From the IMG/VR virus record IMGVR_UViG_3300007734_000743, positions 1 through 62,388 of that record: 62,388 nt of DNA, one strand, 5' to 3'. The notes under the pieces were generated by a model. That model made no database searches. It was not told the origin of the DNA and worked only from the letters and a program-made list of their open reading frames with translations. Positions 2,786-62,388 of the stretch are shown here, one piece after another. How positions within the stretch are numbered: the first letter of the stretch is position 1; each line of letters opens with the position of its first letter. This DNA is from a virus (lineage: Duplodnaviria; Caudoviricetes). The translations under genes were made by a program, and so were the position numbers.

Positions 2786-3103
2786 ATGAAAGAATTAAAT
2801 GGGAAAATCTACAACGAGCAAAATGAGGTAGCAGTGATTATTAGCACCAATTATGGTGCTGGTTGGTCTACTTGGAATACACAATATCCCGAATGTCTTT
2901 TTGACCCAGATTGTGTGAGGTCAATTTTGAGTGGTGAAAGAAACCACGAAAAGATTGCTCAAGAAAAGTGGGCTGATGGTTGTTGGAGTGGTGAAAACAG
3001 CGACGTTGTTTGGGTGCCAGTAGGCACAAAGTTCATCATTCATGAATACGATGGCTTGGAAACTGTTGTAGATTTAATGGATTTTAATTGGAAAGAAGCG
3101 TAA
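2786..3103 (+). CDS. Conserved viral hypothetical protein (VAV.IS..YGAGWSTWN...LFDP...IHEYDG.E)
   Basis: ATG after promoter repeat 6; motif pattern familiar from phage proteins of unknown function. Confidence 0.8.
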   Translation: MKELNGKIYNEQNEVAVIISTNYGAGWSTWNTQYPECLFDPDCVRSILSGERNHEKIAQEKWADGCWSGENSDVVWVPVGTKFIIHEYDGLETVVDLMDFNWKEA

Positions 3104-3176
3104 AACACTTGCTCAATCCCCTCACGGGGCTGTCAGATTGTTTTTCCAGGTCTCACGAAGATTGGGTATAATAGAT

Positions 3177-3401
3177 ATGACAGCACAAGACCATAATGAA
3201 AAAAATCTAGAAACCATCAAATATCAGGAATCGTACATCAATCATTTACAAGAAAAAATTGACAAACTAACATCTGTCATTGAATCTGGTAAGCCTGTGT
3301 GTCCTTATTGCAAGACAGAACTGCAGTTGGTGAGGGAAGAAAGGTATTACCTGCGAGGCAGAGGTGAAGAAGATGTATGGAAGTGCTATTGCACTGATTA
3401 A
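3177..3401 (+). CDS. Small coiled-coil plus Zn-ribbon protein
   Basis: ATG after repeat 7; CPYC...CYC. Confidence 0.75.
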   Translation: MTAQDHNEKNLETIKYQESYINHLQEKIDKLTSVIESGKPVCPYCKTELQLVREERYYLRGRGEEDVWKCYCTD

Positions 3402-3459
3402 CCCCATACACAATCTCACCACGTTTTTCCAGGTTTCACGAAGATTGGGTATAATAGAT

Positions 3460-3726
3460 ATGAGCAGACATTCAGCAACAACAAAAGATGGATTGGAAAT
3501 GATAATTGGTTACGACAGACCACTTAGTGAATACTTTATTCAGGTGTACGACGAAAACGATGAATTGATTTCCGACTGGTCATCGTCAGGTAATTCGATG
3601 ATTAAGAATCATCCTCCTATGGCTAACAGCAAGATGCTCTCAATGATTGAGCAAATCATGAGCGACGAAAGCCAGAAGCTACTGGCTCCGCAGATTAGGT
3701 TGCTCGCCTTGGATTTGCCTTTCTGA
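3460..3726 (+). CDS. Hypothetical early protein (GYDRPL..YF.QV)
   Basis: ATG after repeat 8. Confidence 0.75.
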   Translation: MSRHSATTKDGLEMIIGYDRPLSEYFIQVYDENDELISDWSSSGNSMIKNHPPMANSKMLSMIEQIMSDESQKLLAPQIRLLALDLPF

Positions 3727-3749
3727 GATTGTGTGGGAAGGGAAAAGGG

Positions 3750-3782
3750 GCACTTTTTTAAAAAGTGCTTTTAATTTTTTTT
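3750..3782 (+). terminator. Probable intrinsic terminator closing the cassette array
   Basis: GCACTTTTTT/AAAAAGTGC inverted repeat followed by a T-tract. Confidence 0.55.
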
Positions 3783-3789
3783 CCTATAT

Positions 3790-4740
3790 AGAGCATAGGG
3801 GGTACTTTGTGTGGTGAAAAGGGAACCCATAACCCCCCTGATTTTTCAAACCCGCTCACATTTATCGACAGAGGCATAGGGGGGTGGGGTAAAAATAACA
3901 CCCGGTACTATTTTCAGTCACGCATAGGTGTTTTTTTATTTGATAATAAGTCCTTAGCTGCCGTTGTGATTGCATCGTTATAAAAACTCTTATGCTCTAA
4001 ACGATGGCATATTGCACAAAGCATTATACATTTAGGTAATTCGTTTAAAATTATGCCAAATGAATAGTTTTTAATTTTGCTAAATTCAAATGTCTTTTCA
4101 ACGCCTTCGGAGTGGTGGAAATCTAAGCAAATATATTCTGACATGTCCTTAGGTTTCCACCCACACAATTCACATTTCCCGCCTTTATTCTCAACAGCAA
4201 AATGTCTATAGCCTAATGTTTTTATTTTAGTTACGCATTTTGAGCAAAAAATTCCATTTCTTGATTTTGAGAATATTTTATCACATCCAGGACACAATCT
4301 TTCTGTATAAACATAGATTCTTGAATTTTTAAATATTTGTTTTCTTTTGTTAACATCTTGATTGTATTTATTTAATATCTTTCTATATTTTGATTCACTC
4401 TCATACATATATTCTATCAATTCTTTATCATAATTATTTAGTTTTATAGGAACGCAATTGAAGCAATTAACTCTGCCTCTATAATCAAACCTTTTTCCTT
4501 TAAACTTAAATCGCTTACAGAATTCGAAGTTGCAAATTTTACATTTAGCCATAATACTATTATACAAAATTAAAATATTAACACCCTTTATTTTTAGTGA
4601 CACCCCCCTGGGGGGGTAAAAAAACGGGGGTGTGGTTTGCAGAAAGGGTATAGGCTAGAATTTTATTATGATATTTTTAAAAACAACCTAAAAAAATAAT
4701 TTTGGGTAGGCACAGGGGGAGGGTAAAAATAACACCCCCG
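3790..4740. repeat. G/C-run-rich non-coding blocks with an imperfect direct repeat GGCAYAGGGGG..GGGTAAAAATAACACCC (about 3873-3903 and 4709-4737) flanking the HNH gene
   Basis: Repeats seen directly; G/C homopolymer runs contrast with the AT-rich background. Confidence 0.7.
3914..4552 (-). CDS. HNH endonuclease (homing-type, Zn-finger)
   Basis: CELCG...CLDFHH...ELPKCIMLCAICHRLEH; N-terminal CxxC pairs; start set at ATG 4552 downstream of TGTATAAT. Confidence 0.85.
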   Translation of the reverse strand: MAKCKICNFEFCKRFKFKGKRFDYRGRVNCFNCVPIKLNNYDKELIEYMYESESKYRKILNKYNQDVNKRKQIFKNSRIYVYTERLCPGCDKIFSKSRNGIFCSKCVTKIKTLGYRHFAVENKGGKCELCGWKPKDMSEYICLDFHHSEGVEKTFEFSKIKNYSFGIILNELPKCIMLCAICHRLEHKSFYNDAITTAAKDLLSNKKTPMRD

Positions 4741-4786
4741 TCTTCTCAGATTGTGTATAAGGTGGATTTTTAATCGTATATATTTT

Positions 4787-5142: not shown

Positions 5143-5145
5143 CAT

Positions 5146-5217: not shown

Positions 5218-5235
5218 AATAACACACAATCTGGA

Positions 5236-5988
5236 ATGAATATGTATCTACCTCTTCTTGCCTTTTCCCTTATCACACAATCTTCATTAGATGATGCACA
5301 ATGCAAAAAAGCTCTCAATGAAATTTTGCCCACTATGCGAACAACCAATGCCATGAGCTTTAGACTAGAGGGTGAAAATGAATACAAAGGTTTTTTCACA
5401 AAATACTCTGGTAGCTTTAAATGGTTCAAGAATGAATCTGTAATCAAATCCGAGCTGAAGCTTTCAAGAGATAATACAAATCTTCAAAGAATAGTGGCTG
5501 ATGGAAAGAAAGTATGGGCACACAATCTGCAAAGAAATGAATACACTGTGGCCCGATATTCTCTAGAGCTTTCTGTAGGAGAAGACTACATGAAAAGGTA
5601 TATCAGCGGTGTTAAGTATCCTGTGCTTGGCATGGGCCAGCATTTAATGACCTTGGCAGACCAAGTGGGATTTGTATCACCTTCACTGAAAGATTGGATT
5701 GGCGGCATCTCTTGGCAAGGAAAAATAGAAATAGATAAAAACAATTCTTTGAGAATTGTGAAGAGAATTTATCAAACTGTGGCTGATTATCGTTATGTGA
5801 TGTGGGAGCTTGAATCGTTTGATGAGGGTGTGACATTTAGTTTCTCAAGCATTAAGATTTATAACAAAAGCTTTGATGGCTCTACCACCACCACCTATCT
5901 TTATTTGGACGATTGTGTGGGTGTGGATTATTCAGGATTTAAATTTGTGCCTCCATCTGGCAGTAAAGTATTATGGATTAAAGATTGA
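5236..5988 (+). CDS. Secreted LolA-like (lipoprotein-carrier fold) protein
   Basis: N-terminal signal peptide; IVADGKKVWAHN...NEY and C-terminal FKFVPPSGSK motifs typical of the LolA/DUF2092 family. Confidence 0.6.
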   Translation: MNMYLPLLAFSLITQSSLDDAQCKKALNEILPTMRTTNAMSFRLEGENEYKGFFTKYSGSFKWFKNESVIKSELKLSRDNTNLQRIVADGKKVWAHNLQRNEYTVARYSLELSVGEDYMKRYISGVKYPVLGMGQHLMTLADQVGFVSPSLKDWIGGISWQGKIEIDKNNSLRIVKRIYQTVADYRYVMWELESFDEGVTFSFSSIKIYNKSFDGSTTTTYLYLDDCVGVDYSGFKFVPPSGSKVLWIKD

Positions 5989-6024: not shown

Positions 6025-6690
6025 ATGAACAAACACAATCTACTTAAACGAATAGCATCTGTTGCCACAGAACTAGATGTAAAAGGTTTCACTAAAGAAG
6101 CTAAATCTTTAGATTTGATTCTTCTAAAACTTGCTCAATCACCTGTTGCCGCACCTGGCTCAGATGATGATGGAAATGATGATATTGAATTTCTATCAGC
6201 TGATGAAAATGCATTCAGCCTCGAAAAATGGAGCAAAATTAAAGAAATATTGAAATCAATTTACGAATCTATCAGAAGTGTTTCATACATGCAAGAAAGA
6301 AGTTTTTTTGAAAAAGTGTATGCATACCTTTCTAATAAAGGATATTCAGGACAATATTTAGAGCGGTGCTTGGGGCATTTGCAGAAATTTAAAGAATTGC
6401 TCATTGACACTGAAATGATTTTATCAAAAATGAACACTGAATATGAAAAAGCTTTCATTGAAGATTTTAACAAATTGTTTCAAACTTGGAAAGTGGGCTA
6501 TAGAGAAGTGTATGAAGATGGAAAACCAGAATTTTTAATTACTAACAAGCCAGAACAAGATGAGAAAAAAATGCAAATATCAAGTAAGTTACAAGATATT
6601 ATTGATATAATTGGCTGGGACAATGTACGCTTATTGCCTTGGGAAGAAAACCCAGCTCTAAATGATAAACCTTTTTTCAATATTAATTGA
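6025..6690 (+). CDS. Hypothetical protein with shared N-terminal module (IAS.ATELD..GFTKEAK..DLILLKLA)
   Basis: First ~38 aa nearly identical to those of 12913..13728; remainder unrelated. Confidence 0.8.
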   Translation: MNKHNLLKRIASVATELDVKGFTKEAKSLDLILLKLAQSPVAAPGSDDDGNDDIEFLSADENAFSLEKWSKIKEILKSIYESIRSVSYMQERSFFEKVYAYLSNKGYSGQYLERCLGHLQKFKELLIDTEMILSKMNTEYEKAFIEDFNKLFQTWKVGYREVYEDGKPEFLITNKPEQDEKKMQISSKLQDIIDIIGWDNVRLLPWEENPALNDKPFFNIN

Positions 6691-6963
6691 ATGGAAAACG
6701 ATTCACCACCTGAATTAATTAAATCTTTATTATTTCTCAAAGAAATAGTTGAGAAGGAATATAAAGACAAGGTGGTAATTTGGAAACTAGACGATAAATA
6801 TTCTGAAGCCGCCAAAGAATATTTAAACAAAACTAGAAACACAATCTTACTTGATTCTGAATTTTACACAAGAGCCAAGTTTGCTGGAGCTTGCATTGAC
6901 CCCACAGATTGTGTTTCTTATTGTGTGGGTTATAATGGCAGGTATCCAGTAATTAAAGCATGA
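6691..6963 (+). CDS. Hypothetical protein
   Basis: Abuts neighbours in an operon. Confidence 0.7.
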   Translation: MENDSPPELIKSLLFLKEIVEKEYKDKVVIWKLDDKYSEAAKEYLNKTRNTILLDSEFYTRAKFAGACIDPTDCVSYCVGYNGRYPVIKA

Positions 6964-7970
6964 ATTTGCATTGGAATGTTTATGGCGGCGGTATAGCCAA
7001 TCAATTAATGTCAATTCAAGTGGGAATTATTTTATCATTTCTTTCAAAAAGAAAATTAATTCTATATCAAAAGTATCCTTTAGCTTTCTCTAACAAAGGT
7101 TTATTTATTAACGATTTGTTTGATTTTAATTTTGATTTTATGAAATCCGACATCAATACCACTTCTTGGTTCCCAGCAGATTTTTCCACATGTTATTATC
7201 ACCTTGATAAACCAAACGAAGATTTTATTTTTGGAAGAGAATGTGTAAATATATCTGATTATCAAGAAAATGATATTGGTAGCTCCACAGCAAATACCTT
7301 AGGATATTATTCTTTTAAGATTTTTTTCAATGATTGTAAAAAAGAAGCTGTTCAATACTTAATGAACAATCTACTACCTAAAGAAAAATATCAATTTTTG
7401 GCCCGTAAAATTTCAAATGAGCTTGGTTGCAAAAACTCAATACATGTAAGAAGAGGAGATTTTTGTCAAATTGAGCATTTTGCAAATAATTACACTGCAT
7501 CTTTCAACACACTAGAAAACACAATCTATAATAATTTTTATCATTATCCTATTTTAGTACATACAAATGAAGAAGATGAGAAATATTTCAAATGTGAAAA
7601 TGAATTGATTTTCATAGACAAAATAATCAAAGAAAAACATAAAGAATTAGATGATGTGGAAGTAAGTTTAATTTCAATGCTGATAGCTATGAGAAGTGAG
7701 AATTTTTTAGGAAGTTTAGGTTCTACATTTACAGGCTTAATACATCAAAATAAAAAATTGAATAACCCAGAAAGTAAATTCAAATATCTTTTTTCTAATT
7801 CATCTGCTCTGAACAGATTCGGAGAAGAAATAAAAGTGAATGGTAAATACACTTGGAATCAGCTTAAACTAAAGCATTGGTCGGAATGTAATTGGCAAAG
7901 AGAATATCCAGAATGTATAGACATTGATACAGAAATCACTAATGCAGAAGAATTAAATTTTAGCATTTAA
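6960..7970 (+). CDS. O-fucosyltransferase-like GT-B glycosyltransferase
   Basis: GGGIANQ, IHVRRGDF and FLGSLGSTFT motifs of the GDP-fucose-binding GT11/23/65/68 clan. Confidence 0.75.
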   Translation: MNLHWNVYGGGIANQLMSIQVGIILSFLSKRKLILYQKYPLAFSNKGLFINDLFDFNFDFMKSDINTTSWFPADFSTCYYHLDKPNEDFIFGRECVNISDYQENDIGSSTANTLGYYSFKIFFNDCKKEAVQYLMNNLLPKEKYQFLARKISNELGCKNSIHVRRGDFCQIEHFANNYTASFNTLENTIYNNFYHYPILVHTNEEDEKYFKCENELIFIDKIIKEKHKELDDVEVSLISMLIAMRSENFLGSLGSTFTGLIHQNKKLNNPESKFKYLFSNSSALNRFGEEIKVNGKYTWNQLKLKHWSECNWQREYPECIDIDTEITNAEELNFSI

Positions 7971-8276
7971 TGAAAAACCAATGATTTTTCGCCCGAATGG
8001 CTTCCACCAAGGTTTATTGTAAATTGCTCTAACATCAGAATATGACCTTGAATAACCCTGACATTCTAAAAACTCTTCTAGCTTTATTAAAGTGTTTGTT
8101 GAAGAATGTGAGCAGACAAAATCCACTGTGGGCTTGGAATTATTCAATCCACACACAATCTTGATTTGGCTGGGAGAATAGCCCACACCTGTCACTACTT
8201 TTAGTATAGAATGTATTTCTTTTTCGTTATAAGTGATTTTTTTAACTGTGTACATTTTCTTGTATTTTTTCCGCAA
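7953..8276 (-). CDS. Hypothetical protein
   Basis: Operonic with upstream minus-strand genes. Confidence 0.55.
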   Translation of the reverse strand: MRKKYKKMYTVKKITYNEKEIHSILKVVTGVGYSPSQIKIVCGLNNSKPTVDFVCSHSSTNTLIKLEEFLECQGYSRSYSDVRAIYNKPWWKPFGRKIIGFSLNAKI

Positions 8277-8406: not shown

Positions 8407-10004
8407 GTTGTTTCCTTTTGACTCTCTAACCATTGTAAAGCTCCAGCTCTATCACTGAATAAGCCCATGTTTTGTGCTTTCCAGGCCTCATCAAGCATGA
8501 GCTTGATAGCTGGGCCTTGAATACCCAATACTTGTTGTACATCATTTCCATCAATAAATGATGCAATTCTTTGCATTCTTTTATGAAGCCATGCAAGAGC
8601 TGATTCTCTTGATTCCATAGCTGGATTGTGCTCAAGAATAAGCTTTCTATGCTCCTTTAGAATTTCCCCAATTATTGGACCACCTTTGTTGCCAAGATAA
8701 GGCATAATGTCTCTACCTTGAAGAAGGTCTGGATGTTTGTGCTCGTAAACATTGTATTGTTTAGCCAAATCTGACATCTGCCTAGCCTCTGCTGGAAGCT
8801 CCTTAGGTAATGGTGGCCTTCCAGAGTGGTCGGCTTCAATAAGTAGCTCAAGCATTCTGATGTTTGCAGGATGAATTTTTTCAGCTAAGCTCTTGACAAA
8901 AGCTTCTTGTTTTGGTGTGTTAGAATGATGAATGTGGCTAAGGTGAAATTCTACCAAAGGAACCACTTTATCTATAATGTTTTTGGGAGCACCAATGGAT
9001 TCAAGAAAAGCTCTTGCTTTTGGCCCACCTTGTTCTTCATGTCCATGAGATGTAATTCGGTCTATTCCTTTTTTATTTATTACAGCTGTGGTATCAGGTT
9101 TAGCAAAGTCGTGAGCTAAAGCTGAGTAAATCAATACTTCTCTATCTTCTGGGCTAAGATTTTCTCTTTCAGCTATATTTGCAGCTTCGTTCATTACATG
9201 AGCTGTATGCACATCCACGTCTCCCTCAGGATGATACTCTGGCTCCTGCGGTGTGCCTCTCAGATTGTGTATTTCAGGAAAGTTTTCAGACCATCCAGTG
9301 GTGTAGAGAAAATCAAGAGCTTTTCCAGGCTCTATGCCTTTTGTGACAAGTTTTTTAAACTCCTCGTAAATTCTTTCTTTTGGAAGATGCTTGTATTCTT
9401 CTCTTATAGATTGTGCCAGCTCTGCTGTTTCTGGAGCTATGTCAAAACCAAATCGGGAAGCGAATTGCATTCCTCTAAGCACCCTCAATGGGTCTTCAGA
9501 AAAAGCCTCAGATGTGTGTCTCAGTATTTTATTTTGCAAATCTTGTCTACCATTGTATGGGTCAATTATTTCGCCAGTGATAGGGTTATATGAGATTGCG
9601 TTTATGGTAAAATCTCTTCTAGCTGCGGCTTCCTCAGGTGATAAATCACTTCTCACTTGCACATTAAAGTCTTTGTGGCCCACACCAGATTTTGAATCTA
9701 AGCGAGGTAATGAAAAATCAAAATCTGAGCCATCTTCGCCTACAAACTTAATCACACCAAATGATTGACCCACAAGGTCTGCCTTTCCATACTTAGACAG
9801 AATCTGATTTAGGTCTTCGTAGTTGACATTATATACTTCAAAATCTATGTCTTTAGGTGAAGCTCCAAGTATAGCATCTCTCACTGCTCCTCCAACAATT
9901 AAAGCTCTTCCACCTTTATTATTTATATCAGTTAAAATTGAATAAACATAACCTGGAAGTTTAATTGGGAGCTTTTGTATCTCCTGACTATACTTATACC
10001 ACAC
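8403..10004 (-). CDS. cca: tRNA nucleotidyltransferase (class II CCA-adding family) with HD domain
   Basis: VGGAVRD...KDIDFEV, RRDFTINA, EDPLRVLR, HPEGDVDVHT...HDFAKP. Confidence 0.92.
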   Translation of the reverse strand: MWYKYSQEIQKLPIKLPGYVYSILTDINNKGGRALIVGGAVRDAILGASPKDIDFEVYNVNYEDLNQILSKYGKADLVGQSFGVIKFVGEDGSDFDFSLPRLDSKSGVGHKDFNVQVRSDLSPEEAAARRDFTINAISYNPITGEIIDPYNGRQDLQNKILRHTSEAFSEDPLRVLRGMQFASRFGFDIAPETAELAQSIREEYKHLPKERIYEEFKKLVTKGIEPGKALDFLYTTGWSENFPEIHNLRGTPQEPEYHPEGDVDVHTAHVMNEAANIAERENLSPEDREVLIYSALAHDFAKPDTTAVINKKGIDRITSHGHEEQGGPKARAFLESIGAPKNIIDKVVPLVEFHLSHIHHSNTPKQEAFVKSLAEKIHPANIRMLELLIEADHSGRPPLPKELPAEARQMSDLAKQYNVYEHKHPDLLQGRDIMPYLGNKGGPIIGEILKEHRKLILEHNPAMESRESALAWLHKRMQRIASFIDGNDVQQVLGIQGPAIKLMLDEAWKAQNMGLFSDRAGALQWLESQKETT

Positions 10005-10026
10005 AATCTTAATTTACGAATGAAAA

Positions 10027-10569
10027 TTAATAAAACCTAGAATAAGGATTGCTTTTTTCATTTGACCACCAGTAAGTGCCTTTCATTTCTTGAGTTTCGT
10101 ACTCTGGAAATTTTTTTTCAAAATTGTGTGTAGATGATAAAAGATTTTGCAATATATATCTAAAAACCTGCCAAAAATCATTTTTAAGATTTATATTTAC
10201 AGAACTGATAGATTCTCTAAGGCCTGGAAAATTCACTGTTAAATCAAAAGCCTCTTCAACAATATTTTTGAAATTGTCTGGTAAAAAATTTGAATCAAAA
10301 ATATTTAAGATATTTAGAGATGCATTTTTTGCTGAGGAAAGTAATAAAGAAACATTATTATTTTCTTTAGCAATAGAATAATTATTAGACATGGCTTCAT
10401 AGATTTCTAAAGAAATTTTTTGAATAATATCTGAAATGGATGCTCCGTAAAGAGATGGCTGCATTTTATTAAGCTCTTTGTCGGATTCTATTTTAGCCTG
10501 AAACTCTAAATCATTCCATAGTTTTTGGAAAGCTTCATCTTGATTCTCCTGACTATACTTATACCACAC
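10027..10569 (-). CDS. Hypothetical protein, MWYKYSQE N-terminus
   Basis: GTG start inside the repeat; C-terminal FW.VFRY.L...L shared with 10590..11138. Confidence 0.8.
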   Translation of the reverse strand: MWYKYSQENQDEAFQKLWNDLEFQAKIESDKELNKMQPSLYGASISDIIQKISLEIYEAMSNNYSIAKENNNVSLLLSSAKNASLNILNIFDSNFLPDNFKNIVEEAFDLTVNFPGLRESISSVNINLKNDFWQVFRYILQNLLSSTHNFEKKFPEYETQEMKGTYWWSNEKSNPYSRFY

Positions 10570-10589
10570 AATCTTAATTTACGAATAAA

Positions 10590-11138
10590 TTAGATAGAAT
10601 CCTTAAAATTATTTACATCAAAATCATTAATTAATTCAGGATATTCAAAAACATTATTACCGTTTGTTAATTTTTGCTCAAGAAAATACCTAAAAAATTT
10701 CCAAAAAATTGGTAAACTCTTCAAGTTATTGCCTATGGGCATAAAGTTTGAATTAAAAGAACTTCTATGGTCAATAGGGGCACAATCTAAAATCGCTTCA
10801 TCTATTTTCGAATTTATATCATCTGGTATGTCATATCCCGTTTCTTTAAGAAACATAGCGGCATCTTTAGCAGATTTCCTAGCTGATTCTTTTACTTCAT
10901 CAAAAATTTCAACATCTGAAAAGTTGTATTTTGAAAAGGTGTACTTAGGTGGTTGATAAGAGGATATTATTCTATCTAATACATTTTTCACGTAAATGGC
11001 AATATGCTGAACTATATCTTGTGTGGAATATTTTTCATTTGTTGGGAAAATGTTTTCTTCATAAGGATTAGATTCAATTGCATCAAAATCAATATCTGGA
11101 GTAAAACCGTTATTTTCAACACAATACTTATACCACAC
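10590..11138 (-). CDS. Hypothetical protein, MWYKY N-terminus; distant paralog of 10027..10569
   Basis: S.QDI.Q.I, SAK.A, FW.FFRYFL...L and FEYPE similarity. Confidence 0.8.
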   Translation of the reverse strand: MWYKYCVENNGFTPDIDFDAIESNPYEENIFPTNEKYSTQDIVQHIAIYVKNVLDRIISSYQPPKYTFSKYNFSDVEIFDEVKESARKSAKDAAMFLKETGYDIPDDINSKIDEAILDCAPIDHRSSFNSNFMPIGNNLKSLPIFWKFFRYFLEQKLTNGNNVFEYPELINDFDVNNFKDSI

Positions 11139-11184
11139 AATCTAATTTTAAATGAAATTAGTCTGAAAACCTTTTGGTACAAAT

Positions 11185-12099
11185 TTATTGAGGTTTATAA
11201 TCTTTAAATAAATTTTGAATTTCAGCCACCACTCTTTGATATTCTTCATTACTTATTCTTTTAACAATTTCTTGGAACTTTTGTAAATCTTTCAAAGTTT
11301 TTTCTTTATCGAATGGTTTACGATATCGCTCAGGATATCTTCTATTTTGTGCTTCGTGCCATCTTTCTGACTCTGATAAATAGAAATCAGCATCGCCTTC
11401 AAAATCTCTTATTTTTGCACCATCCACCACATTGTAAAGAGGCCTTTTATTAGGTGAATTATCTTCTGAATATCCAGTTTGAAAAACATTTCCAGAGCCA
11501 AATGGGTCAAAATAGAAAAATATACTTTTAATCACATATGGCATAAAATTTAAAAGCTCTTTTTTATAATCGCCACTTTGCAATTCCCTTCTGTCTTCGG
11601 GAAGCAAAGGCTCATAAAGAACAGCATTTGCGTCCACTTTATAATCAGGGACGGCTAATTTTGGTAATTTTTCTGCATTTGATGGATTCATTTTATAGTA
11701 TAAATCATTATATTCATTAACCACCCTGGCAAAAATTCTTAACTCCATCACTCTTTCAAATGTTTGTATTAACTTGTCAAAATCAGTTCTTGTTGTTTCA
11801 ACAATTTTATCTTTATAGCTCACAGTTGACGTTGATATATCTCCTTTTTTCTTTGGATATTTTTCAATCATATTAGTTTCTGGATTTAAATATACAAATT
11901 TTTCAACACCCTGGCCAACAAGTTTTTTATTTTGAAAAGTTTCATAATCTCTATTATTTGGCCAAACACCTTTGGGAATCTTGTAATTTTCGTGACTTAA
12001 TCCCATTGCTTCAAGGGCATCTTTTACTGGTCCTTTTTGTACTTCGCCTAACATATATTCTGTTGGCTTTTCTGTCTCCTGACTATACTTATACCACAC
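11185..12099 (-). CDS. MWYKYSQE-leader protein, possible divergent protein-kinase-like fold
   Basis: GQGVEKFVY (Gly-loop-like), D....GNV and VVDG (catalytic-loop/DFG-like) in the expected order. Confidence 0.4.
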   Translation of the reverse strand: MWYKYSQETEKPTEYMLGEVQKGPVKDALEAMGLSHENYKIPKGVWPNNRDYETFQNKKLVGQGVEKFVYLNPETNMIEKYPKKKGDISTSTVSYKDKIVETTRTDFDKLIQTFERVMELRIFARVVNEYNDLYYKMNPSNAEKLPKLAVPDYKVDANAVLYEPLLPEDRRELQSGDYKKELLNFMPYVIKSIFFYFDPFGSGNVFQTGYSEDNSPNKRPLYNVVDGAKIRDFEGDADFYLSESERWHEAQNRRYPERYRKPFDKEKTLKDLQKFQEIVKRISNEEYQRVVAEIQNLFKDYKPQ

Positions 12100-12167
12100 A
12101 ATCTTAATTTAAATGAAATTAGTCTGAAAACCTTTTGAAAATATCGGGCCAAAAACGTATATTAAGT

Positions 12168-12437: not shown

Positions 12438-12898
12438 TGATTCATAAATTAAACGAGCAAGTGCATGAATTTTACAATAATAAATATCTAAGAAATAGAT
12501 ATCCATCTTTGTCATATGTTGCCTCACATCGCTTTTCCAATGGTGATTCGCCAGATTTAGCCGCTGTAGCTCTTGGCTATAAACCTGCGGCTTTGTGGCA
12601 TGAAAATTGGACAGATGCAAATTCTGATTACATCACTTCATGTTGCTATAGAGGTAATGAATTATTGTATTTGGACACTTATACTGTAGTAGTTTGCGAG
12701 AAAAAAGATTTCGATAAGTTTAAGGCTATATTTAATAAGCCAAATACATCCAGAGAGTGGGGCGAGCTTTTAGGCTACCCAAAACATCTCATTGATTTGT
12801 TTGTGGAATGTAGTGAAGGAAGAGAAATTCCAGATTGGGACACTTACCATGCTAAAGCTGAAGAAATGGCTCTCAGATTGTGTATGGAAATGGATTAG
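12434..12898 (+). CDS. Hypothetical protein (G.KPA...WGELLGYP)
   Basis: Operonic ORF. Confidence 0.75.
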   Translation: MMIHKLNEQVHEFYNNKYLRNRYPSLSYVASHRFSNGDSPDLAAVALGYKPAALWHENWTDANSDYITSCCYRGNELLYLDTYTVVVCEKKDFDKFKAIFNKPNTSREWGELLGYPKHLIDLFVECSEGREIPDWDTYHAKAEEMALRLCMEMD

Positions 12899-46798: not shown

Positions 46799-46836
46799 GT
46801 ATAAAATGAATAAAAAAACACTCAAAAACACAATCT

Positions 46837-50825: not shown

Positions 50826-51789
50826 CAAATATCGCCCACAATCTTTTGATAACTTGATTCAAAGCAAATATAATAAAGGGCTGTCGAAAGACAGCCTAAA
50901 TCATCATGCTTATTTATTTTTTGGCCCTCCAGGCACTGGAAAAACTTCTGCTGCCAGATTGTGTATGGCTGAGTATTTAGATGAAAAAAATAAACATTTA
51001 GCAATTTCTGGAAGCCATCCTGATTATGTGGAGATAAACTGTGCTGTTAATAATGGAGTAGATGATATCAGAGCTATTGTTTCTGATGTAGTTAACACAA
51101 TTCCAATACAATCTGAGTATAAGTTTATCATATTTGATGAATCTCATATGCTAACTACACAATCTCAAAATGCTTTGCTTAAAACTGTTGAAGAGCCACC
51201 AAAACATGTAAAGTTTTTCTTCTGCACCACGGAAATCAATAAAGTGTTACCAGCAATTCGTTCCAGATGCCAGATAATGCCATTTATTAAGCTGTCTGAT
51301 AAAGCTTTGATTAAAATTTTAAGCAATGTCTGTAACGGTGAAAACATTAATTTCAACGATGAATCGGCACAAATGATAATTTCATTTGCTGATGGTTCTG
51401 CCAGAACAGCCATAAACATTTTTGAGCAATGTGCTTCTGTATTTGATAATCCTGAGGCTGTAGGCCAAATTGTTGGAACAACAAGTATAAACAATTTTAA
51501 GCTACTCACTGAATTAATTTGTGATAAACAAGCAGTAAAAGCTATCCAGCTTTTAGACGAATTATTCAACAACTCTATTGACCCAGGTTCATTGATGAAT
51601 AAGTATGCTGATTACTTAGCTGATTTAATTACTCAAAGATTGGTAGACAAAAATAGTGTGCCTTACGATGGCAAAAAATTGCTTTTGATAGCAGATTGTG
51701 TCACAGATATTTTAAAAGATTTCAAAATACTTCAAAATATAAAACTTATTTCTAAAATAAACGTACTAAAAACTATAAGTAAGATGTAA
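50812..51789 (+). CDS. dnaX: Clamp loader gamma/tau subunit
   Basis: LY.KYRPQ.F, HAYLF.GPPGTGKT, DESHML, NALLKT.EEPP, SRC, GSAR. Confidence 0.95.
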   Translation: MSLYNKYRPQSFDNLIQSKYNKGLSKDSLNHHAYLFFGPPGTGKTSAARLCMAEYLDEKNKHLAISGSHPDYVEINCAVNNGVDDIRAIVSDVVNTIPIQSEYKFIIFDESHMLTTQSQNALLKTVEEPPKHVKFFFCTTEINKVLPAIRSRCQIMPFIKLSDKALIKILSNVCNGENINFNDESAQMIISFADGSARTAINIFEQCASVFDNPEAVGQIVGTTSINNFKLLTELICDKQAVKAIQLLDELFNNSIDPGSLMNKYADYLADLITQRLVDKNSVPYDGKKLLLIADCVTDILKDFKILQNIKLISKINVLKTISKM

Positions 51790-53654: not shown

Positions 53655-54484
53655 AAGGAGAATCTTTTTTTATTCTTGAGAAGCTTTACGAGCTGACAGA
53701 AGGTAAAAAGATTGAAATTAACCCAGAGAAAATTAATCCGTTTTCACTTTTTGGAAATGTGGATTACTATGTATTTTTTGACCCAGATAAAGAAACTTTA
53801 GAAAAGCAAAATTTGGATAAGTTTATTTTATGTTTCATGGACAAAAACATTGACCAGAGACTTGATTACATTAAAAAAATTAAGCAGAAAGCTCAATTAT
53901 TAAGTTTTGAACCTATACCAACAACAGATTTTGATTCTTTTAAAAAGGTTTTTCCAATGTTCAAGACTAACTTGAATTCATTGCCATTCAAGAAAAATAG
54001 CTTAAAGTACAAAGGCTCTAAGCAAAATTATGAGTGGTTTGATTTATGTTTAATTTCTGACTTATACGAAATCGGAGACATAAATATTTATCAACAAGTA
54101 TTTGAGTCATATTTTGACATTTGGAGGTTTACGGATTTGTTATGGAGCGGCAACATAAAATGCTTGGAGCAAATTAAATACATAAACGATAAAAACTTCG
54201 AAGACTATTTTAATAGAATACGCGAAACTTCCAAAGACTATCTTGAAGTGATACAAACTGGGGCAAGTAATTTTTATTCTCACAAGAAGCTCTACAGTGA
54301 CTCAGTGGTAAACAATGAATTTAGATTTAATAAAATAAAAGAAAAATTAAATCTCATTAATTCAGATTGTGTGCTAGATTGTGTGGGATATTTTGATGTG
54401 TGCTTAAAGAATGTTAGAGAGGGTTCTAATCCGAAAGTAGAAATGATAAAGCTATTTTATAAGTTTAAAGAAAATGCTCTCTAA
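53636..54484 (+). CDS. Possible clamp-loader delta (HolA-like) subunit
   Basis: YILEGE.FF, FSLFG, FDI..F.D; C-terminal D...K...G.NP...M. Confidence 0.5.
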   Translation: MSNYILEGESFFILEKLYELTEGKKIEINPEKINPFSLFGNVDYYVFFDPDKETLEKQNLDKFILCFMDKNIDQRLDYIKKIKQKAQLLSFEPIPTTDFDSFKKVFPMFKTNLNSLPFKKNSLKYKGSKQNYEWFDLCLISDLYEIGDINIYQQVFESYFDIWRFTDLLWSGNIKCLEQIKYINDKNFEDYFNRIRETSKDYLEVIQTGASNFYSHKKLYSDSVVNNEFRFNKIKEKLNLINSDCVLDCVGYFDVCLKNVREGSNPKVEMIKLFYKFKENAL

Positions 54485-55028
54485 TGATTACGTCCATATA
54501 GATTACTTAGTTGAAAAAGTAAAACAAAATGACTCAGAGGCTCTCAGTGAGCTTTATGATTTTTATAGACCAATTATTTCAGCAACCGCCTCAAGAGTTT
54601 GCAATAGATATAAATCTGTAGAAAAGGACGATTTAATGTCTGAAAGTATTTTCATTCTCAAAGAACTTTGTGAGAAATATGACAAGAACAAAAGTTTTTT
54701 TTCCTACTTTTTGGAGACTAGAATACAATCTTACATGATTGCAAAAGTTAAATCTAAATACACTGAAAATGTAACAATAGTGCCTTTAGATGAGCATGAT
54801 TTTTATGAGCCTTGCGAAAATTGTAGCATTTTTGAAGAACACACAGAGCTTAGGGAAGAGATTGATAATTTGCCCGAAAAACTTCAACAAATTATAGATT
54901 TAATTTACTTCAAACAATTCACACAATCTGAATGTGCTGTAATTTTAAATGTTTCACAAGCCGCAGTAAGTAAAAGATTAAATAAGGCAATAAAAATTTT
55001 GAAAGAAAATTTAGAAAAACGGTTATAA
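54474..55028 (+). CDS. Sigma-70-family factor (regions 2 and 4)
   Basis: A...LY..YRPII, DDL.SE, YD....F.Y; LPEK...I.L.Y....TQ.ECA.IL.VSQ.AVS. Confidence 0.85.
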   Translation: MLSNDYVHIDYLVEKVKQNDSEALSELYDFYRPIISATASRVCNRYKSVEKDDLMSESIFILKELCEKYDKNKSFFSYFLETRIQSYMIAKVKSKYTENVTIVPLDEHDFYEPCENCSIFEEHTELREEIDNLPEKLQQIIDLIYFKQFTQSECAVILNVSQAAVSKRLNKAIKILKENLEKRL

Positions 55029-56556: not shown

Positions 56557-58659
56557 ATGGATAAGAAAAAACAACAAAAGCAAATTATTGAGCAACGCGA
56601 GAAAATGTTGCGAGATGCAGCAAAGTTAGAACAAATTTTTGCTCAACTAGACGGTGATGAAATTGAGATAGAATACAGCTCAAGATATGAAGTTCCGCCT
56701 CCTGAGCCAAAAGACCAATCTAAATACAATCCGAACAAGCTTGTAGATATTGAAACATTTATCACTCATCCATACTATCTTAATTTAAGACCTTATCCCT
56801 GGCAGATTCTAGCATTAAAATTATTCTATGCTGGCTCGGAAGGAAACACAATCTTAGAGTTTAATGAATCCAAGAAAGAAGAAGCCGTAGGTTGCTCAGA
56901 TTGTGTGTGGAAGTATGTGGTTGATAATGAAAATGAATGTGCAGAAAAAATTGAAAAAGAAGAAAATTATCAATCCGTACTAAAGCCATTAAATTCAAGG
57001 TGCTTAAAGTGCGAAAGATGTCCTTTAAAAACTAAACAAACTAGATTAAATCATGAAATAAAAATTTCAGCTGATAAAGAATCTGAGAAAATTTTAACAG
57101 ACATTCTTGAATCTGAGCCAGAAGATTTATTTCAATCTGAAATTGATTTAATAGATGAAATTCCTGATGAAGCAGTAAAGTTGCAAATCAAAAATAAATT
57201 AAGGAATAAATTTCAAGAGCTTGTTTTGATTATTGGAAGACGGGGTTCTAAGTCGTTTATGACTGTTGCCATAGCCTTGTATGAGCTTTATAGGTTATTG
57301 TCAATGAAGCATCCACAAAAAAAACTTGGTTTGCCAGATTTTCAAGAAGTGGTAATTTTGAACGTGGCTAAAAATGAAGACCAGGCAAAAGACTCAATCT
57401 TTACACCTATGAAGAATGGTGCTGTATCTTCTCCTTTCTTTCAAAAATACATTGGAGTGGACAATGCTTTAGAAATGAAATTTTTAACCGACAGAGACAT
57501 TGAAGAAAACGAAAGAAGAAAAGCTAGAGGTTTAGCCGAGCTTGATGGCACAATTATTCTGAAATGCGGCTCGTCCTCTGCATCTGGCTTGGTTGGTAAA
57601 ACCTGCTGGTGCATTATTCTAGACGAGCTTGCTGCTATGGCGGGAGATAACCCAAACTCTGGAATTGATAAAAAATTATACGATGAACTGAAACCTTCTA
57701 TCGCAACATTTGGTAAAGAAGGAAAGATTATTTGTTTGTCCAACCCTAAGGGTCCTTTTGGCCAGTTATTTACACTTTATAATACTAGACTTGAAGACAG
57801 CATGACTTTGGTGTTAAAAATACCCACATGGCAAATAAATGCGAACATTGACAAACTTTGGTTAGAAGCACAAAGAAAAAATGACCCAATCGAGTACAAC
57901 ATGCAATTTGGTGCAGAGTTTGGAAATAACTCGCAGAATCCATTTCTTTCTCCAGAAGATGTAGATTATGCCTTTGTTAATTCTACGCAAGTATCAAGAA
58001 TGGAAAAGCGTGAAACTTCTGGCGAATATTATTGCCACGTAGACCCAGCAAATAGGTCTGATTATTATTGCATAGCTGTATGTGAAGCAGTGCCCACTGG
58101 AATAAGAGATTTGAATGGTAAAATGATAAAATCTTTTAATATTGTTCACATTCATTTTTGGGCTCCTAAAAAAATGAAACAACCAGTGCCAGTTAGAGAA
58201 GTGGAAGAATATCTTTTGCAACTTCATGACAAGTTCAGATTTAAACAAATTAGTTTTGACCAATGGGGCTCAATGGAAACTATTAATAAACTTCAACAAA
58301 TGGGGCTTCCTGTAGTGCTGAGAGTGTTTAACAAAGAGTACAAAGATAAAATTTATCTAAATCTGCTTGAAGCTTTCAGAGATAAGAGGATAAGATTTTA
58401 TAAAATGTCAGGCGGTAGAGTAAAAGACTCAAGAGACCAATGGATGGAAATAAATGAGATACCTGAGGCAAAAGACCAATTTATGTTTCTCCAAAAAAAA
58501 TGGAGAAATGGAAGGCAAATTATCGAAGCACTATCAGGCTATAAAGATGACATTCCAGATGCTGTTTCGGCTGTTATTTATGAAGCAGATGCAGAAATGA
58601 TGATGGCAAGAGCTTTACCAAGAGCAAGGGTGGCATATACAGGCAGAGGCTTAAGGTAA
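56557..58659 (+). CDS. terL: Terminase large subunit
   Basis: PYPWQ, IGRRGSKS, ILDELA, LSNP, HVDPA, SFDQW, DDIPDA. Confidence 0.92.
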   Translation: MDKKKQQKQIIEQREKMLRDAAKLEQIFAQLDGDEIEIEYSSRYEVPPPEPKDQSKYNPNKLVDIETFITHPYYLNLRPYPWQILALKLFYAGSEGNTILEFNESKKEEAVGCSDCVWKYVVDNENECAEKIEKEENYQSVLKPLNSRCLKCERCPLKTKQTRLNHEIKISADKESEKILTDILESEPEDLFQSEIDLIDEIPDEAVKLQIKNKLRNKFQELVLIIGRRGSKSFMTVAIALYELYRLLSMKHPQKKLGLPDFQEVVILNVAKNEDQAKDSIFTPMKNGAVSSPFFQKYIGVDNALEMKFLTDRDIEENERRKARGLAELDGTIILKCGSSSASGLVGKTCWCIILDELAAMAGDNPNSGIDKKLYDELKPSIATFGKEGKIICLSNPKGPFGQLFTLYNTRLEDSMTLVLKIPTWQINANIDKLWLEAQRKNDPIEYNMQFGAEFGNNSQNPFLSPEDVDYAFVNSTQVSRMEKRETSGEYYCHVDPANRSDYYCIAVCEAVPTGIRDLNGKMIKSFNIVHIHFWAPKKMKQPVPVREVEEYLLQLHDKFRFKQISFDQWGSMETINKLQQMGLPVVLRVFNKEYKDKIYLNLLEAFRDKRIRFYKMSGGRVKDSRDQWMEINEIPEAKDQFMFLQKKWRNGRQIIEALSGYKDDIPDAVSAVIYEADAEMMMARALPRARVAYTGRGLR

Positions 58660-59714: not shown

Positions 59715-60151
59715 AAAATGTTTTGAAAGCAATTGATTTGTTAGAACAAAATGGATGCTATAGGCTTGCCGATTTATTTCAAGACCAACTTATAAAAACT
59801 GCTGCATGGCCTTATAATCTTTCAGCTATTGATGAGCTGCCTCTATCGGCAAGGTTTTACACTTGGCAAAGAAATGAACAAGATTTCAATGAATTTGATA
59901 GAAAATTTTATAAAGAATTGTATTATAGATTACCAGATTATAGAAATCTTAAAACAGATTCAGATGAAAAACTTAACATGGAAGGTGAAATGCATGGTGA
60001 AGACCCCACACCTGGTCCAGCTTATGTAGACCCTGTTTACATGGTTAATTCACCTTCAATGAATGGAAGTCTTGACTACTTTACTTGGGACCAAGCTCAC
60101 GATATCAATCAAGGGCCAGAATATTGGAAAAATCTCAAACCAAGAGGATAA
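59711..60151 (+). CDS. Hypothetical late protein with LE..G...LAD.F...KTA motif
   Basis: N-terminal motif shared with other putative late genes. Confidence 0.7.
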   Translation: MKNVLKAIDLLEQNGCYRLADLFQDQLIKTAAWPYNLSAIDELPLSARFYTWQRNEQDFNEFDRKFYKELYYRLPDYRNLKTDSDEKLNMEGEMHGEDPTPGPAYVDPVYMVNSPSMNGSLDYFTWDQAHDINQGPEYWKNLKPRG

Positions 60152-60178
60152 AAACAAAACAAAGGAGAAAAATAATTT

Positions 60179-60625
60179 ATGCCACAGCCTATCGTACCAA
60201 TTCATAAACAAGAAAGTATGCCAATTACATTTGGAGAATCTATGCAGCCTGAATTTCAACTTTCTGAGCTACAATCAATTTTACTTCAAACTACAGCTTC
60301 TGCCAAAAGCAACACAAGATATTCTATAAATACGATTGCAGCTCTTCAAGATATTGATAAAAATACAGATTTTGTGGTCACAGCAGTAACAGATTCAAAC
60401 GAAAGGTATTGCTCTGTTCCTACTGAAATTGACGAAAATACAGTTTTAGCTTTGAAGGCAGAAGGCTTGATTTCAGGATACGGCAGGTCGGTAAAAATTA
60501 CTGAAAGGGGAAGAACTGCTCTTAGAGATGCTTATCTTTCAACAAAAAATAGTTTAAAAGAAAACAGAACATCTGATAAATTTGATTTTCGTTCATTTTC
60601 AAGAATTGCCAAAAAAGGAGAATAA
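60179..60625 (+). CDS. Late protein with a winged-helix-like segment
   Basis: LKAEGLI...VKITERGR..L. Confidence 0.6.
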   Translation: MPQPIVPIHKQESMPITFGESMQPEFQLSELQSILLQTTASAKSNTRYSINTIAALQDIDKNTDFVVTAVTDSNERYCSVPTEIDENTVLALKAEGLISGYGRSVKITERGRTALRDAYLSTKNSLKENRTSDKFDFRSFSRIAKKGE

Positions 60626-62388
60626 TGTTTAATAAAAGCGTTTTAGAATTACTTGCCAAGCAAGCACATAAGGACACAAACAGCAAGAAAACATCTGACA
60701 TATTTTTCTCTATGCTTAAAATTGCTCAAAGCGATAGTATGTATGATGAAATGCTTGATTTGCCTAATAAAAGAATTCGAAGCTTGCTGTCAGAGCCTGG
60801 TAAATACGAATACAAAACTCAAGACATAAGAAATGAATTACAAAAAAATCTAAATATCATGAGTGCTTTTGTTATTTCCAAAGCAAAAAATGAAGAGATT
60901 TCTGAAGCAGTGGGTGAGTTTATGCCTGTTAAATTCATCGAAAGTGCTTTAAACCAATTGGAAAAATACAACGGTGCAAATGCAAATGATTTTTCACTTA
61001 AAGGTCTTTTGAATGGAGCTTTAAGTTCAGCTACAAGACTTGTGGAACAAAGAAAACAAAAACAACAATCAAAAGGTGAATCTTCTTTAGAAATGTCGGG
61101 CGTTGAGGAAGGTGATACGTTCAAAGAACGGACAATAGACGAAAGTGCTCTAGCTAGGTTCGATGCACTTTTTGAAGAAGGGGCAGAGGGTGATGTGGAA
61201 GATAAAGAAACCGCTCTTGAACAAGCTTTAAATATTGTTTTAAGAAACGAAGAGTATGACATTTTAAGCGTCTTCGTTGAGGGAATTCTTTACCCAGCAT
61301 TACAGGAATTAAAACAAAGATTATCTGGTGAAATTACATCAAGTGTAATTGAAAAAGTAAAACCATTAATTACTCAAGGCATGAGTCAGCAACAAATTCA
61401 AAATCTTGTTTCAAAATTTGTTGAAGAAGATTCTGTACAAGCTCAAGCTGACTTTGATAAATTTTATACAGATACATTTAAGTTCATTAGAGACAATTAC
61501 GGGGTGCCAAAACGTAAATCTGGTCAAAGAGGACAAAAACAAGAGTTTAGCTTGAGAGAAGTGCAGGATGAAGTAATAAGACGAATACAAGCTTTGGACT
61601 TGGATAACATGGTTGATTACATCTTCAAGCAAAACTTTTATAAATTGCCAAAATGGGCTACTGGAGAAAATCAAGAATTAACCAAGGAAATAATTAAGCA
61701 AATTATTAAATCTGAAGTTATCATTAATGCTAAACAAGATATGAAAGTAAGCTTACCTGGAATTAAAAATAGACCGCAAGGAGGAAGAGCAAAGCTTTCC
61801 CAGATTGATATTGTTGAGCACCTAATGATGAAGAGAATTAAAAATCTTACAGAGGATGAAGCTGAACAATCTAAATTGATTTCTGAAACATTAAAACGCT
61901 TAGGGTCAAAAGTAGACCCTGAAACAAAACAAGTGATTCATAAACCAAAAGACATGACACAATATCGTCTTTTCCAACACACCACTCCAATGATGATGGC
62001 AGCTTACTTTCAAAAAGCTTCCGAAGAATATGGTGAGAAGTTTTCAGAATTATCTGATGAGGAGCAACAAGACGTAATTGAAAAAGTACAATCGGCTATT
62101 TACAGAGGCGGAAAACTTCCTTACACATTTGATGTAGGGGCAAATGAGTTGAGGGCAACTCCTTATAGTTCGGTTGGAGAGGATGCAGAAAATATTACCA
62201 GGCAAAATGTTCAAGAAAGACTTCAGCAAGCTATGGGAATCAGAGGTGGAAGGCTTCAAGGAGGTGGTTTCATGAAATCAATGATGCCAATTCAGCCTAA
62301 GATTACCCCTCCAACACAATCTGATAAACCAAAACCAGAAAAACCAATAGAGCCCGTTTCTTATTCTGGTGACGATTTTGCTTCAAGC
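60625..62388 (+). CDS. Large protein, 5' part only (at least 588 aa; absent from the ORF track because no stop is reached)
   Basis: AGGAG ribosome-binding site; ATG overlaps the upstream TAA; frame open to the window end (MFNKSVLELLAKQAH...MLKIAQS...). Confidence 0.85.
   Translation, partial: MFNKSVLELLAKQAHKDTNSKKTSDIFFSMLKIAQSDSMYDEMLDLPNKRIRSLLSEPGKYEYKTQDIRNELQKNLNIMSAFVISKAKNEEISEAVGEFMPVKFIESALNQLEKYNGANANDFSLKGLLNGALSSATRLVEQRKQKQQSKGESSLEMSGVEEGDTFKERTIDESALARFDALFEEGAEGDVEDKETALEQALNIVLRNEEYDILSVFVEGILYPALQELKQRLSGEITSSVIEKVKPLITQGMSQQQIQNLVSKFVEEDSVQAQADFDKFYTDTFKFIRDNYGVPKRKSGQRGQKQEFSLREVQDEVIRRIQALDLDNMVDYIFKQNFYKLPKWATGENQELTKEIIKQIIKSEVIINAKQDMKVSLPGIKNRPQGGRAKLSQIDIVEHLMMKRIKNLTEDEAEQSKLISETLKRLGSKVDPETKQVIHKPKDMTQYRLFQHTTPMMMAAYFQKASEEYGEKFSELSDEEQQDVIEKVQSAIYRGGKLPYTFDVGANELRATPYSSVGEDAENITRQNVQERLQQAMGIRGGRLQGGGFMKSMMPIQPKITPPTQSDKPKPEKPIEPVSYSGDDFASS

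Follow-up and report, generated by a model that had tools for sequence, protein, structure and literature searches.

The window analysed here is the whole of the virus record IMGVR_UViG_3300007734_000743 (62,388 bases), and it carries 39 exact copies of the 9-mer ACACAATCT, 24 on the plus strand and 15 on the minus strand. We find that this word is a DNA-level signal, not a codon or peptide by-product, and that it is kept by selection. The phage is uncultured, and because the record is rated 17% complete, a full genome of ~350 kb is implied, of which the window represents 62 kb. An earlier note on this DNA, made by a model from the sequence alone, had listed 39 copies, and all were found at identical coordinates. 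We tentatively propose that a putative sequence-specific double-strand DNA-binding protein, probably encoded by the phage, recognizes ACACAATCT, after which G and then A usually follow.

The copy number is far above that predicted by composition. Dinucleotide shuffles of the window (n = 100) gave a mean of 0.75 copies and a maximum of 4, and an order-3 Markov model predicts 1.22, in agreement with the single copy or so expected in the earlier note. This 30- to 50-fold enrichment makes ACACAATCT the commonest 9-mer of the window, above A/T-rich words, and its 8-mer core, CACAATCT, occurs 53 times versus 4.7 expected. Exact copies are present at ~32 times expectation and one-mismatch copies at ~2 times (62 vs 29 expected); the excess of near-copies claimed previously is therefore real, although 'many' somewhat overstated it. 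After the word, base 10 is G in 19/39 copies and base 11 is A in 20/39; written out for oligonucleotides, the word-bearing sequence is ACACAATCTGA. The higher density at the left of the window was borne out as well, with 20 of the 39 copies lying within 2900-14500, which is 18.6% of the window (1.72/kb vs 0.37/kb elsewhere, binomial P = 4e-6). Copy spacing in the window and its relatives is clustered rather than regular (coefficient of variation, CV, 1.22-1.52), and the window holds word-free gaps of 4-7.5 kb.

Four related viral contigs, G001 to G004, were located via the large terminase (TerL). The word is present 12 times in the 30 kb of G001 (TerL identity 88%), 65 times in the 166 kb of G002 (87%) and 336 times, 144 on the plus and 192 on the minus strand, in G003 (75%), which at 347 kb is 99% complete. 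It is absent from the 35 kb of G004 (66%), a result with a chance of ~1e-6 given the density in G001. A reversed-word control gave 0-13 copies, and word density across the carrying records is 0.39-0.97/kb. The collection labels G003 a provirus; no integrase was found in it, and the word reaches both ends of the 347-kb record with no host flank visible.

A metagenome scan added 29 more loci. Around the terminase, the word is the top or near-top 9-mer in the clade of the window and in that of G003 and locus L217. Loci L213/L214 have 0 copies in 29 kb even though the terminase tree places them as sisters of the window clade, and in lineages with TerL identity of 70% or less the word is at chance level. 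Thus, its distribution is clade-limited and labile, a pattern that the earlier note had not seen. No replacement word was detected among the loci of ten relatives tested, most of which lack ACACAATCT, nor in G004. A presence/absence comparison of the genes in 46.8-60.6 kb revealed no gene covarying with the word, since every gene there is conserved in lineages with and without it. Loss of the word in sister lineages while neighbouring core genes are conserved favours an accessory or host-dependent system, and it argues against the word being needed by the conserved machinery for replication or packaging. When inverted pairs of the word were sought in the viral collection, 29 loci were obtained; copies beyond the two that seeded the search were seen only at G003 loci, and G003 alone had such pairs in excess of chance. 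Two candidate second words, GATGGAACAG in G002 and ACCCATTCC in G004, were rejected as local peptide repeats.

To place the copies relative to genes, we used open reading frames (ORFs) called by a crude greedy method, which cover 96% of the window. Fully within ORFs are 31/39 copies, 17 on the coding strand and 14 antisense; 6 are at an ORF edge and 2 are intergenic. The copies within ORFs use all three phases in both orientations, with phase biases that track codon compatibility. These results agree with the claim of the earlier note that most copies are in genes, in various frames and on both strands. Sense and antisense copies are also near balanced in relatives (111:77 and 36:23), and 188/255 of the G003 sites outside a tandem gene array described below are inside ORFs. 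Sites are ~5-fold over-represented outside ORFs. Copies occur in unrelated conserved genes, with one each in the genes for DnaE polymerase, RecJ and a sigma factor, two in that for terminase and three in that for the clamp loader.

Two codon-preserving null models left the excess in place, as the note had argued in rejecting codon or peptide bias. Shuffling synonymous codons within genes, a null that keeps all non-coding sites, gave 12.0 copies (maximum 17) versus the 39 observed. When codons were redrawn from genome usage with the proteins fixed, 3.16 copies within coding sequences (maximum 9) were obtained versus 30 observed in the window, 5.85 versus 59 in G002 and 33.3 versus 258 in G003. 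The ~80% of sites outside cassettes and arrays lie at distances from start codons that are as random. In the flanks of 239 scattered G003 sites we observed G and A after the word and a ~10-nt G-poor stretch before it, but no -10 or -35 signal. Because scattered copies have no fixed distance to a start codon, they do not behave as the promoter element of a sigma factor; a fixed distance was found only at cassette-linked sites.

The window was aligned with its relatives by blastn at ~74% nucleotide identity. Intact sites numbered 8/21 in G002 and 8/18 in G003, compared with 8.9% and 11.9% of all aligned 9-mers. With neighbouring 9-mers as controls (at most 300 nt away and matched for gene and codon phase), 8/20 sites were retained in G002 versus 1.58 expected (P ~1e-4) and 8/16 in G003 versus 1.77 expected (P ~8e-5). 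Retention of intragenic sites is thus 4-5 times that of phase-matched local 9-mers, indicating that the word is kept by selection and that sites do not decay between relatives at the rate of their surroundings. Partner positions that are not conserved differ by substitutions and not by gaps, so sites are gained and lost by point mutation. About half of the sites are lineage-specific, in regions where approximately one copy is expected by chance; new sites therefore keep arising. The word is also sharp. Outside the array in G003, 130 copies match the 10-mer exactly, whereas no variant with one base changed among the first nine exceeds 19 copies, and bases 3 and 5-9 hardly vary.

A minority of copies occupies promoters. 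The first 3.5 kb of the window contains eight early cassettes, all on the plus strand and each ahead of a small early gene. In each, a C/G-rich hairpin is followed by GTTTTTCCAnnTTTCAC-N10-TATAATAGATATG, whose ATG is the likely start. Judged from its sequence, the cassette may be read as TTTCCA-N18-TATAAT, a sigma-70-like promoter with a leader that would be very short or absent; the ATG lies 4 nt past the -10-like box, a distance suggestive of early mRNAs that are leaderless or almost so. In G003 there are 70 such cassettes, confined to a single strand. In 28 of these, the exact word lies in the -35/-10 spacer, 3 nt 5' of TATAAT, and 11 of the 28 have an added inverted copy upstream, so that the pair brackets the -35-like TTTCCA.

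A second kind of cassette is found at the 5' ends of four consecutive minus-strand ORFs, which share ~45 nt of 5' sequence that includes the first eight codons, VWYKY(S/C)(Q/V)E. Here the reversed word overlaps the ORF's opening GTG and touches an extended -10-like box, TGgTATAAG. The earlier note had correctly reported the overlap with the GTG starts of four MWYKY genes but had not recognized that these GTGs belong to a repeated 5' cassette. The reversed word next to TGgTATAAG also occurs at two places in G003. One of the four genes encodes the CCA-adding enzyme, and the other three have no assigned function. In other runs, metagenome contigs are interrupted at the repeats.

Further concentrations of copies are in G003. 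Between 14.4 and 32.7 kb it has at least 57 tandem tiny genes of ~55 amino acids each (25-83), translationally coupled, all of which open with MINTDCV; the codons ACA GAT TGT GTG there are the reversed word, which is present 69 times, and local GC skew in this array reaches 0.45. The tiny proteins are rich in a four-residue xQVx periodicity, e.g., DQVWDQVELQV, and we know of no family that resembles them, no protein-database search having been made. At ~33.19-33.63 kb, a 450-bp non-coding stretch contains four 46-bp direct repeats, in each of which two tandem copies of the word start 10 bp from one another. The same cluster holds another four copies, some in each orientation, with one more 4 nt before a TATAAT, and two G/C-rich hairpins follow the repeats. 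The cluster, which has no counterpart in the window, could be an origin, a partition region or a master control region.

Table 1. Exact copies of ACACAATCT and early promoter cassettes in the window, with the gene context of each
Feature	Coordinates	Strand	Context
Copy	2908..2916	-	antisense within ORF 2747-3103
Copy	3408..3416	+	directly 5' of early promoter cassette 3414-3465
Copy	3726..3734	-	3' edge of ORF 3364-3726
Copy	4292..4300	+	antisense within ORF 3914-4603(-)
Copy	4748..4756	-	5' edge of ORF 4751-5005
Copy	5224..5232	+	intergenic, 5 nt past tRNA-Glu (5145-5218) and 3 nt ahead of ATG 5236
Copy	5275..5283	+	sense, ORF 5236-5988; position matched in G003
Copy	5520..5528	+	sense, ORF 5236-5988; position matched in G003
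Copy	6033..6041	+	sense, ORF 6025-6690; position matched in G003
Copy	6839..6847	+	sense, ORF 6691-6963
Copy	6906..6914	-	antisense, ORF 6691-6963
Copy	7519..7527	+	sense, ORF 6960-7970
Copy	8153..8161	+	antisense, ORF 7953-8276(-)
Copy	9262..9270	-	sense, CCA-adding enzyme ORF 8403-10004(-)
Copy	10001..10009	+	shared 5' cassette (AGATTGTGTGGTATAAGTAT on - strand) of CCA-adding enzyme gene 8403-10004(-)
Copy	10566..10574	+	shared 5' cassette, ORF 10027-10569(-)
Copy	11135..11143	+	shared 5' cassette, ORF 10590-11138(-)
Copy	12096..12104	+	shared 5' cassette, ORF 11185-12099(-)
Copy	12875..12883	-	antisense, ORF 12434-12898; position matched in G003
Copy	14464..14472	-	antisense, ORF 14361-15527; position matched in G002
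Copy	18612..18620	+	antisense, ORF 18321-19058(-); position matched in G002
Copy	18930..18938	-	sense, ORF 18321-19058(-)
Copy	19703..19711	+	sense, ORF 19106-20008
Copy	25117..25125	-	sense, ORF 24929-25978(-); position matched in G002
Copy	26870..26878	+	antisense, ORF 26679-26999(-)
Copy	28549..28557	+	sense, SbcC-like ORF 27796-28920
Copy	36045..36053	+	sense, ORF 35974-36621
Copy	37201..37209	+	sense, DnaE-type polymerase gene 36623-39829; position matched in G002 and G003
Copy	43848..43856	-	antisense, RecJ-like gene 43318-45063; position matched in G002
Copy	46828..46836	+	intergenic, touching GTG of ribonucleotide reductase (RNR) small-subunit ORF 46837-47838
Copy	50956..50964	-	antisense, clamp-loader gene 50812-51789; position matched in G002
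Copy	51157..51165	+	sense, clamp-loader gene 50812-51789; position matched in G003
Copy	51693..51701	-	antisense, clamp-loader gene 50812-51789; position matched in G002 and G003
Copy	54364..54372	-	first of tandem pair (12 bp apart), inside ORF 53636-54484, ~100 nt 5' of extracytoplasmic function (ECF)-like sigma gene
Copy	54376..54384	-	second of tandem pair with 54364..54372
Copy	54921..54929	+	sense, ECF-like sigma gene 54474-55028; position matched in G003
Copy	56846..56854	+	sense, large-terminase gene 56557-58659
Copy	56898..56906	-	antisense, large-terminase gene 56557-58659; position matched in G002
Copy	62314..62322	+	sense, ORF 60625-62388 (open at window end)
Early promoter cassette	194..245	+	GTTTTTCCAnnTTTCAC-N10-TATAATAGATATG; near-copy CACAATTTC in spacer
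Early promoter cassette	960..1011	+	spacer CACATTTTC
Early promoter cassette	1670..1721	+	8-mer core CACAATCT in spacer
Early promoter cassette	2063..2114	+	
Early promoter cassette	2528..2579	+	
Early promoter cassette	2740..2791	+	CAGATTGT in upstream half
Early promoter cassette	3131..3182	+	upstream CAGATTGT; spacer AGATTGGGT (8/9, reverse orientation)
Early promoter cassette	3414..3465	+	spacer AGATTGGGT (8/9, reverse orientation)

Five facts fit a protein that reads double-stranded DNA: the word is exact and asymmetric, over 9-11 bp; it lies in either orientation beside -10 boxes; inverted pairs surround the -35; tandem copies are one helical turn apart; and copies cluster over the early region. 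We envisage two populations of sites. The minority would be regulatory, located in early-promoter spacers (exact in G003 and degenerate in the window), in the shared 5' cassettes and in the tandem and inverted arrays of G003, and at these cassettes the protein would act as a transcriptional switch, the simplest case being promoter occlusion. Most sites would be isolated ones dispersed within ORFs on both strands, gained and lost by point substitution, with selection preserving their presence. Such scattered sites may load, concentrate or bridge the same protein genome-wide, most densely over the early region, and their purpose could be silencing, compaction, marking of phage DNA or titration. 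The protein itself would probably be an accessory one, outside the core machinery for replication or packaging. The earlier note had suggested a protein-bound signal for genome organisation, injection or packaging, Chi-like protection or use as a decoy; its DNA-level part is upheld by the nulls, the use of phases and orientations and the retention of sites, while the data do not separate these functions.

Several observations weigh against a phage regulator of this kind. Pfam or PHROGs searches with ~60 window proteins returned no classical repressor, and two sigma-family proteins were the sole DNA-binding candidates; models of HTH_3, DnaA_C and ParB_N had no match in five phage records. None of the eight window cassettes has the exact word in it, so the promoter role rests mainly on G003, a relative with 75% TerL identity. 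Mean per-base identity in sites exceeds that in flanks by a modest gap (0.80 vs 0.74), and with about half of the sites gained or lost between relatives, the target of selection may be density rather than the individual site. In addition, we know of no reason for a regulator to need hundreds of intragenic sites, and a protein of the host would fit most of the same facts.

That last alternative, in which the word is the site of a host global regulator or nucleoid protein that is recruited, titrated by a decoy or hijacked for regulation, is one that we consider unlikely. It shares the facts listed above and would accommodate the finding of no phage binder; loss of the word in sister lineages could reflect a host switch, and the sigma-70-like appearance of the early promoters implies that host factors act there. 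Against it, to our knowledge the word matches no consensus of a host factor such as DnaA, IHF, CRP or LexA. Furthermore, the ten bacterial genomes tested showed no excess. When one genome of each prokaryote species was scanned for a direct pair of the word within 30 nt, at least 120 matches across >100 taxa were obtained, with at most two loci per genome among the matches listed, and the 14 multi-copy bacterial loci inspected were local tandem repeats. Ten genomes counted whole (5 Bacteroidota and 5 cyanobacteria), which were chance picks from these matches and not host candidates, had the word at background, ~0.01/kb (e.g., 54 copies in 6.4 Mb).

Equally doubtful to us is a Chi-like signal for nuclease control, in which the word would stop or modulate a helicase-nuclease, either of the host RecBCD/AddAB type or the phage's own, so that phage ends are protected or channelled into recombination and host DNA without the word is not. 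Like Chi and the FtsK-orienting polar sequences (KOPS), the word is short, asymmetric, sharp and over-represented, acts at the DNA level and is found inside genes on both strands; it is maintained with turnover, and such signals favour their own spread. The phage relies on RecA/UvsX-like, RecJ-like and SbcCD-like recombination functions, and clade-limited presence could track host range. Unlike with Chi and KOPS, however, no polarity switch was seen along G003 in 10-kb bins outside the array and early region of this 99%-complete genome. Known Chi words are 5-8 nt long and G-rich, and this word is longer and not G-rich. A nuclease signal also gives no reason for promoter spacers, inverted -35 pairs or tandem arrays with starts 10 bp apart, and the background level in the ten bacterial genomes, chance picks as noted, counts against it too.

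We give similarly limited weight to the idea that the word is a phage-autonomous 'self' tag, an exact 9-mer placed hundreds of times in the genes of a clade of freshwater jumbo phages, by which a phage protein would tell phage from host DNA. Such a protein could shield the DNA against nucleases, coat it, compact it or bring transcription or replication to it. Selection would then act on density with constant turnover of sites, and the whole system would be lost in sister lineages. Other mechanisms, among them base modification at the word or nicks there (T5-type strand interruptions in virion DNA), are somewhat less probable still.

A replication signal (a favoured site for priming or for loading of the helicase, or an initiator box), which would be dense near an origin and scattered on the Okazaki scale, appears quite improbable. 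Consistent with it are the bacterial-type replisome with an apparently split DnaG, a density of approximately one site per 1-2.5 kb and the iteron-like cluster in G003, and the word's CTG ending, present in about half of the copies, is the trinucleotide of Escherichia coli DnaG. The likeness to DnaA boxes and iterons extends to the use of an asymmetric 9-mer in phased, non-coding tandem arrays, in promoters and singly. Yet the window has site-free gaps of several kilobases with over-dispersed spacing, and sister lineages with the same replication genes have neither the word nor a substitute. In the five records, Bac_DnaA_C (DnaA domain IV) gave no match at E up to 0.1, Rep-type families not having been searched. 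The genome-wide excess of DnaA boxes is also far below that of this word.

It is slightly less probable again that the word is like an uptake sequence, derived from or shared with a naturally competent host that carries ~1/kb through biased uptake. By statistics, this is the closest match. Haemophilus influenzae has 1,471 9-bp uptake cores in 1.83 Mb (PMC2817400). The uptake signal sequences (USS) and DNA uptake sequences (DUS) of Pasteurellaceae and Neisseriaceae share with the word a 9-10-bp core, ~0.4-1.0/kb, both orientations, all frames within genes with a frame bias, an origin by point mutation and a relatively higher density outside genes. Uptake sequences are spaced more evenly than random (PMC2817400), whereas the sites here are clustered (CV >1). 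Moreover, they are in a phage genome and lie in promoter spacers and tandem arrays rather than terminator dyads. A lytic-looking phage gains nothing obvious from uptake, and no tyrosine integrase (Phage_integrase) was matched in the five records, one of which is 99% complete. No word-bearing host was found among the direct-pair matches listed, which are scattered and include no saturated genome, or among the ten genomes counted.

Finally, we regard as highly improbable that the word has no function of its own and stems secondarily from repeated cassettes, from paralogous peptides or from composition: repeat-derived copies do exist (those in the four 5' cassettes of the window and, in G003, 69 in MINTDCV codons and 28 in promoter cassettes), but flanks are unique at ~35/39 copies in the window and 239/336 in G003, the genes that carry copies include unrelated conserved ones such as those for DnaE, RecJ, the clamp loader and terminase, and the codon-preserving nulls together with retention of sites above local controls largely refute this reading.

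By architecture, the sites seem closest to the operators and stoperators bound by the L5-type immunity repressor of Cluster A mycobacteriophages. There, a short asymmetric site bound by one protein, as the site of the putative binder would be here, is found in promoters and at many other places in the phage genome. L5 has more than twenty 13-mer sites, and stoperators lie in short intergenic spaces with an orientation that follows the direction of transcription (PMC9283540). In contrast, most sites here are in ORFs, with orientation near balanced, and copies reach hundreds. For an L5 genome of ~52 kb, site density is roughly 0.5/kb, which is comparable. Cluster A phages are temperate, with a repressor that binds its site as a monomer, and because no integrase or Cro/CI-type helix-turn-helix was found in the five records, a temperate, stoperator-like system is without support. 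As neither the defining features of uptake sequences nor those of stoperators are all present, we file the word under neither. T4-type phages have mobile promoter cassettes (promoter-early stem-loops), and the phages studied here likewise have repeated terminator-promoter cassettes ahead of many small early genes in a plastic region; this likeness covers the cassettes only and not the ~80% of copies scattered in conserved genes.

The replisome of the window is of the bacterial type, as judged by Pfam and PHROGs profile searches. Besides the DnaE-type polymerase, RecJ-like protein, clamp loader, SbcC-like protein, small RNR subunit, CCA-adding enzyme and large terminase, whose coordinates are in Table 1, the window encodes a DnaB-like helicase, a DnaC/IstB-like loader, a RecA/UvsX-like protein, an SbcD-like protein, a beta clamp, the large RNR subunit, MazG and a single tRNA-Glu. 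The DnaG primase is apparently split between a CHC2 zinc-ribbon ORF (35219-35740, +) and a Toprim/catalytic-core ORF (42596-43321, +) 7 kb apart, with polymerase and recombinase genes located between the two parts. Two sigma-70-family genes, at 51820-52545 (regions 2, 3 and 4) and 54474-55028 (ECF-like), both on the plus strand, are on either side of the beta-clamp gene, and both are kept in relatives with and without the word. Auxiliary genes encode an Fe/Mn superoxide dismutase (13725-14312, -) and an RlaP-family nucleotidyltransferase (144-944, +). A free-standing homing-endonuclease gene (16043-16777, +) matches PHROG 314 and GIY-YIG/HNH types; contigs from 3/4 runs pass directly from 15949 to ~16801-16808, bypassing it, so the gene is present in some populations and absent in others.

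The phage is distant from those in culture. Megablast with 20 kb of the window gave no match to cultured phages, and the closest TerL of a cultured phage (tblastn) is only 25% identical. Near-identical sequence was present in 20 public runs from 11 studies, with labels of freshwater, riverine, estuary, aquaculture, aquatic, sediment and viral metagenome.

Genome-wide selected words are known from bacteria, as uptake sequences, Chi and KOPS, and in a limited, oriented and intergenic form from temperate mycobacteriophages. The open-access literature gave no description of ACACAATCT, with string matches on unrelated topics (green fluorescent protein, cell biology) among the matches listed, and a keyword search of it did not bring up any account of a large phage with a word dispersed inside its genes. 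The word can serve as a simple sequence marker of a freshwater phage clade that is widespread, and the lineages with and without it form a natural experiment toward finding the protein that reads it. If that protein is encoded by the phage, the word would offer a way to study how huge phages arrange, regulate or label 350 kb of DNA. If it is a self tag, it would be a viral counterpart of Chi and uptake sequences that is independent of a host genome carrying the word.

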